A stretch of 1,123 nucleotides of DNA, taken from the NCBI RefSeq assembly GCF_003334355.1, contig NZ_QOWP01000097.1; one strand, written 5' to 3'. Numbering within the stretch: position 1 is the stretch's first letter; every line of letters starts with the position of its first letter. The DNA is from Escherichia coli. Lineage in GTDB: Bacteria > Pseudomonadota > Gammaproteobacteria > Enterobacterales > Enterobacteriaceae. The notes beneath the pieces were generated by a model. It was not told the origin of the DNA. It did no database searches and saw nothing but the letters and a program-made list of their open reading frames with translations. Positions 1 through 1,123 of this stretch are shown here, piece by piece. Position numbers and translations under genes: made by a program.

Positions 1-1100
1 TAGTTTCTGTCCATGGCTGCTTTTCGCATCTTACGTCTTAACCCTGCCTTGAATACCTTATCATTCGTCAAAATATTAATAGCAATGTGCCGTATCCCTG
101 AAAATAATTCTGCTGCATTTCCTCTTCTTATTTTGCAGTCGTCTTCATTCATTACCACGTCCAGACGCCAGTGCAGCTTATTCTCCACGTGCCAGTGATT
201 TCGGATCGCTGTGGCGAATTTCTCAGCGGTTAAATCAGCAGAACTGATATAATATCTGACCGTTATTTCTGGCTCTTTCTTTTGTTCTGCTATTATGGAC
301 CGAAAGGAGACTGCCACGCATAATTTCTTCAGCCCTTTCCATTCAAACGTGAAATCAATAAGTTCATCAGGGACATCGCAAACAATATGAAGACGGATTT
401 CTTCTCTGCCGTGACTCTTTTCACTCATTGCGTAACTGTCATGCTCTGGATTATTTAATTCTTTCAGCGGAAATTTTTCCTCAAAGGCTTTATTTAGCCG
501 CCCCTGGTTTCCTTTTACCGCGAATAAATAATCACCTCCCTGTTTTTGTATCTTCTCTGCAATATCTTTCTGGCAACCCATCGCATCAGTTGTGATGATT
601 TTTCCTTTAATATCCAGCATGTTAAGAAGTTCTGGGATAGCTGTAATCTCATTAGATTTCTCATCCGTCTTGATCTGTCCGATGACCAGACTGTGCATTG
701 TTGAGAACGCACTAATGACATGAATCGCTCCCCTGCGGCGACTCTTGTCATAAGAGTGCCGGAGCGTTTTTCCATCAATTGCAATGACGTCTTTATCATC
801 TGAAGAATGGCAGTCACGCATCCAGTTAATAAAGCACTCGTGAAATTTTGCAGGACTGATACAGGATACAACTCTGGCAATGGTATCGTGAACAGGAATA
901 CCATTTTCAAAATCACCATATTGCTTCAAAAAATCGAGATGTGTTTCCCCAAAATCCTCTATATCTTCCCAACCTTCTGCACCAGAAATAACGGCACAAA
1001 TAGTCAACAGTAGAATATCCGATAATTTATGTTCCACTTTCCAGGGTTGTCTGTAATCGGGGATAATAGAAATATGTTCCATCAATTTTTTAAGTTCCAT
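1..1100 (-). CDS. ISAs1-family DDE transposase (H-repeat-associated protein, H-rpt; YhhI/YdcC-like), 3' end truncated by window edge
   Basis: Hand translation of the reverse complement from the ATG at 1100..1098 gives an uninterrupted 366-codon frame: [366 protein letters not shown], followed by a partial codon TA at positions 2..1. From memory this closely resembles the E. coli H-repeat proteins (ISAs1 family), including the [15 protein letters not shown] and NHWHVEN motifs. I cannot tell which paralog it is, so no gene symbol is given. No stop codon is in the window; the C-terminus lies beyond position 1. Confidence 0.9.
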
Positions 1101-1106
1101 TTTGTT

Positions 1107-1112
1107 CTCCTT
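1107..1112 (-). promoter_or_regulatory. Shine-Dalgarno ribosome-binding site for the transposase gene
   Basis: On the minus strand the sequence reads AAGGAG (plus-strand ctcctt at 1107..1112), followed by a 6-nt spacer (AACAAA) and the ATG at 1100..1098. This is canonical SD spacing. Confidence 0.65.
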
Positions 1113-1123
1113 AATTATGTAAG

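Follow-up and report, generated by a model that had tools for sequence, protein, structure and literature searches.

The partial codon at the edge of an Escherichia coli gene assigned to the ISEc1 transposase

The window gene and its assignment

The window, meaning the whole 1,123-nt stretch of Escherichia coli DNA that was analysed, carries one long open reading frame on its minus strand. Translation of the reverse complement of positions 1-1100 gave an ATG at 1100..1098 (M1) followed by an uninterrupted run of 366 codons up to AAC at 5..3 (Asn366), after which only the first two bases of codon 367 (TA, positions 2..1 on the minus strand) lie before the edge and the third falls beyond it. An earlier note on this DNA had described exactly this frame, ending in an asparagine codon and a TA with one base unseen, and retranslation confirmed it. 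At the composition of the minus strand the probability of a stop is 0.070 per codon, and 366 open codons would arise by chance with P ~3e-12; chance is therefore excluded and the frame is a real gene. A ribosome-binding site, AAGGAG at 1112..1107, precedes the ATG with a spacer of 6 nt and was graded strong. The features of the window are as follows.

1..2, minus strand: first two bases (TA) of codon 367; the third base is T in 11 relatives, giving TAT (Tyr)
3..1100, minus strand: codons 1-366, stop-free, of the gene assigned to the ISEc1 (ISAs1-family) transposase; the full protein has 378 aa in relatives
72..797, minus strand: DDE transposase catalytic domain (PF01609), aa 102-343, placed from the Pfam match on the L001 orthologue
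264..264, minus strand: allele-specific base, A for the relatives' G; codon 279 is ATA (Ile) in place of ATG (Met)
819..1079, minus strand: N-terminal DDE_Tnp_1-associated domain (PF13808), aa 8-94, placed from the Pfam match on the L001 orthologue
1101..1123, minus strand: final 23 nt of the element's 144-nt untranslated left part, from comparison of copies
1107..1112, minus strand: ribosome-binding site AAGGAG, 6 nt 5' of the ATG

Sequence comparison identifies the gene as the transposase of ISEc1, an element of the ISAs1 family that corresponds to the Rhs-associated H-repeat and encodes the YhhI/YdcC/YbfD proteins. When 5426 complete E. coli genomes were searched with the whole window by megablast, 5343 proved to carry ISEc1 (median, 5 places each), and the near-identity to annotated copies by which ISEc1 is recognised extends over the full length of the window, the best matches being 99.8% identical across 1123/1123 nt. 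All 25 of the best rows listed were yhhI, annotated in RefSeq as 'yhhI: ISAs1-like element ISEc1 family transposase'. At the protein level, the NCBIfam model for ISAs1 transposases (NF033564) matched the 366-aa window protein with 418.2 bits (E = 1.9e-125; cut-off 70), the match taking in model positions 1-314 of 314 and aa 29-344 of the protein. For the domains, the 378-aa orthologue from L001 (2 residues different from the window protein) was searched against Pfam, which returned PF13808 (1.5e-33) followed by PF01609 (8.9e-31), the architecture of the ISAs1 family. The window protein thus shares the complete model and both domains with the family founded by ISAs1 of Aeromonas salmonicida, of which ISEc1 is the enterobacterial member. 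It also contains the motifs AIDGK, TTDAMG and HWHVENK, in which D109, D172 and E306 form a candidate DDE triad by analogy with IS4-type transposases generally. The element is the 'H-repeat' (H-rpt) that studies of the early 1990s described from the Rhs elements of E. coli K-12, and it appears in ISfinder under the name ISEc1, with a length of about 1.29 kb; the transposase is already known and the finding at the window edge carries no novelty.

The closest named relative is YhhI, the H-repeat-associated ISEc1 transposase encoded downstream of rhsB in E. coli K-12, to which the window DNA is 99.6-99.8% identical, the 23-nt leader included, and with which it has its start codon and ribosome-binding site in common. 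A record of the K-12 lineage (NZ_CP043205.1, O16:H48) was among the best full-window matches, and K-12 MG1655 (NZ_LR881938.1) matched a 177-nt query spanning the edge (the tail query) at 100%. The window differs from the K-12 gene in its combination of P19, E219 and a private I279 (ATA for ATG). It also stops short of the last 12 codons and of both ends of the element, and as an internal piece it may come from yhhI or from another locus. The other ISEc1/H-repeat copies of E. coli and Shigella (ydcC, ybfD-type and plasmid copies) share the 1291-bp element, the 378-aa reading frame, Tyr367, the tail and the terminal repeats. Their identity to the window is 97-99% rather than 99.8%, they are inserted at other sites, and a frameshift or truncation affects some of them.

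In all three yhhI loci that were fetched the gene sits between an Rhs element on its upstream side (rhsB-yhhH in two, an RHS core protein and ybfC in the third) and yhhJ/rbbA downstream. The third locus, from strain G4/9 (L002), has the RHS core protein and ybfC at the upstream Rhs tip in place of rhsB and yhhH and, directly before its intact yhhI-locus ISEc1, part of a second ISAs1 transposase gene (L002:2643-2879) that is annotated as a pseudogene. This arrangement suggests that H-repeat copies belonging to different Rhs elements have recombined.

Plasmids accounted for 25 of the 25,134 ISEc1 places in the E. coli genome search. The ISEc1 records in the plasmid collection include several chromosome-sized ones of 1.2-4.9 Mb, such as NZ_CP141089.1 (4.94 Mb) and NZ_OL790696.1 (4.80 Mb), which are probably chromosomes filed under the wrong label; ISEc1 seems seldom to be carried by genuine plasmids. 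A record labelled 'UNVERIFIED_ORG Escherichia phage' (L010; OR845860.1, 1547 nt) is essentially one ISEc1 copy with short flanks, and most likely represents host DNA in a phage preparation and no phage sequence.

Anatomy of the element and the extent of the window

The ends of the element were set by comparing copies at different insertion sites. In L001 the element occupies 2880-4170 (1291 bp), and on the element's own numbering, 1-1291, the window runs from 122 to 1244. The left end, CAGGGAAAGATCA, sits 144 nt 5' of the ATG, and the right end closes with ...TAATCTTGCCCTG; read as a reverse complement the right end is CAGGGCAAGATTA, which agrees with the left at 11 of the first 13 positions. 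An automatic inverted-repeat search of L001 did not report these terminal repeats, which are too short and imperfect for its 8-nt seed. The left end of L010 reads TTAGGGAAAG in place of CAGGGAAAG. No target-site duplication was evident in the five copies with both flanks read (L001, L002, L009, L010 and L011).

Both terminal inverted repeats therefore fall outside the window, as its coordinates within the element state: 121 nt are missing at the left, comprising the left repeat and most of the untranslated leader, and 47 nt at the right, comprising the third base of codon 367, 11 more codons, the stop and the right repeat. What the window does hold is 97% of the coding sequence, together with the ribosome-binding site and the promoter-proximal leader. 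Every profile match ends by aa 343-344, short of the missing 12 residues, so none of the recognisable catalytic core is cut off; by the same measure the C-terminal tail is outside the NF033564 model, and the family profile says nothing about it. As far as the sequence extends, this ISEc1 copy is apparently intact.

The end of the gene overlaps the end of the element. In L001 the right terminal inverted repeat, CGTAATCTTGCCCTG, lies at 4156-4170, 33-47 nt beyond the equivalent of window position 1, and contains the stop codon TAA, which stands 10 nt before the element end. Because the stop is inside the repeat, the last codons are packed against the predicted transposase binding site. ISEc1 is an insertion sequence with a single gene, and its DDE transposase would be expected, from established knowledge of such enzymes and by inference from the family assignment, to bind the terminal inverted repeats and to catalyse DNA cleavage and strand transfer.

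The base beyond the edge and the C-terminal tail

The dangling TA is a product of where the window was cut and is no property of the DNA itself. The earlier note had held that the window by itself cannot settle whether codon 367 is tyrosine or a stop, which is correct since the third base lies off the window, and it had expected tyrosine and a continuation on the strength of a family length of about 378 aa. That length agrees with the near-identical copies, which are annotated with a 1137-nt coding sequence, i.e. 378 aa and a stop. In the three yhhI-locus relatives the coding sequence runs 37 nt beyond the point matching window position 1, and the 3' end reads GAC AGA AAC TAT CTG GCG TCA GTC CTT GCG GGG AGC GGG CTT TCG TAA, which translates as ...DRN-YLASVLAGSGLS*.

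The 177-nt edge-spanning query was covered to 80% or more in 4955 records, and in 3203 of these the identity reached at least 99%. Eleven copies were fetched and read across the edge: the three from the yhhI locus and eight picked for diversity down the ranking of that query, among them chromosomal copies (ydcC-type and unnamed) and copies from a small plasmid of Shigella flexneri, an E. coli plasmid and the 1.5-kb 'unverified phage' contig. The 30 nt before the edge were identical to the window in ten of these copies and differed at 2 positions in the remaining one (L011). The base after TA was T in 11/11, making codon 367 TAT (Tyr367), as the note had anticipated, and in 11/11 the reading frame stopped at codon 379. 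In the usual tail Tyr367 is followed by LASVLAGSGLS and TAA; ten copies have this tail (YLASVLAGSGLS) and one has YLASVLAGNRLS (variant AGNRLS), so that a 378-aa transposase ending ...MDRNYLASVLAGSGLS was found in all 11 relatives, one with the variant tail. Downstream of the element the flanks part immediately after ...CCCTG, which gives at least 9 distinct downstream contexts for the 11 copies; since the flanks diverge right after ...TAATCTTGCCCTG, the copies represent separate contexts and no single locus was resampled.

On this evidence the next base in the window's own copy is almost certainly T. Nearest relatives differ from the window at 2-4 positions per 1123 nt, and at that divergence the chance that this particular T has become A or G is ~0.001-0.002. 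The exact allele is absent from the collections searched, and Tyr367 and the length of 378 aa are accordingly strong inferences from relatives rather than direct readings of this copy. The plus-strand sequence expected just before position 1, again taken from relatives, is CAGGGCAAGATTACGAAAGCCCGCTCCCCGCAAGGACTGACGCCAGA. The reading preferred here, which is very probable as a whole, is that the window is an internal piece of ISEc1 in which codon 367 would be TAT, followed by LASVLAGSGLS and TAA, for a total of 378 aa.

Three other readings of the edge were weighed. Were codon 367 TAA or TAG in this copy, the transposase would end at Asn366 and lack the 12-residue tail. Base composition alone would even lean that way, giving A or G a probability of 0.57 against 0.43 for T or C, and the window is known to carry at least one private substitution; but none of the 11 copies examined has a stop at codon 367, no 366-aa product is on record, the remainder of the frame is intact and the base change needed is as rare as the observed divergence makes it. 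A premature stop is thus exceedingly improbable, and the same grade applies to TAC, which would still encode tyrosine and leave the protein unchanged. A synonymous change of that kind would be tolerable, and the neighbouring Leu368 codon does vary between CTG and CTC, but all 11 copies have TAT.

The copy might instead be truncated, interrupted or rearranged just past the window, by a deletion, another insertion or the end of a contig where a short-read assembly broke inside the repeat, with its C-terminus altered or absent. This is very unlikely, though less so than a substituted base. Partial and frameshifted ISEc1 copies are known in E. coli, for example the L006 pseudogene and the partial copy upstream of the intact one in L002, and the median number of places per genome is 5 for the whole window but 4 for the tail query. 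Furthermore, both ends of the window lie inside the element and its exact allele is missing from the collections searched, as would be expected of a short contig in an assembly broken up by repeats. Against this, the closest relatives (99.6-99.8%) are all intact 378-aa genes at the yhhI locus, the 30 nt of the window next to the edge are the same as in intact copies, and the window shows no sign of a junction. The continuation through Tyr367 to a 378-aa protein is therefore retained. Biologically the partial codon is unimportant, being a cut through one of the commonest insertion sequences of E. coli, and the gene should be handled as a normal 378-aa ISEc1 transposase that is neither truncated nor unusual.

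The window allele

With P19, E219 and I279, the window protein is 2-3 residues away from the yhhI-locus copies, and the best match to the window DNA among the 5,426 complete E. coli genomes has 2 mismatches. The private change is nonsynonymous, Met279Ile (ATG -> ATA, window position 264), and falls within the DDE domain. It was absent from the 5,426 complete genomes and from the plasmid and phage collections, where a near-identity search returned just copies of 99.3% or less. Scanning for a 32-mer that contains the private base gave no exact hit among the fetched loci, in the species-representative genomes of GTDB or in metagenome contigs from JGI, and no exact gene product was on record for the allele either with the canonical tail (378 aa) or ending at N366 (366 aa). 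M279I may represent either a rare allele or an error introduced in sequencing or assembly. There is a small chance that the M279I copy has also lost the 12-residue tail, whether through a nonsense change at Tyr367 or through truncation past the window.

Codon 19, whose first base is window position 1046, encodes Pro in the window and in L002, Ala in L001 and Thr in L003, the three residues all arising from changes at the first codon position. For copies that are 99.6-99.8% identical this codon is unusually variable. The G+C content of the window is 40.4%, whereas that of the E. coli chromosome is typically roughly 51%, and the low value fits a foreign origin of the H-repeat.
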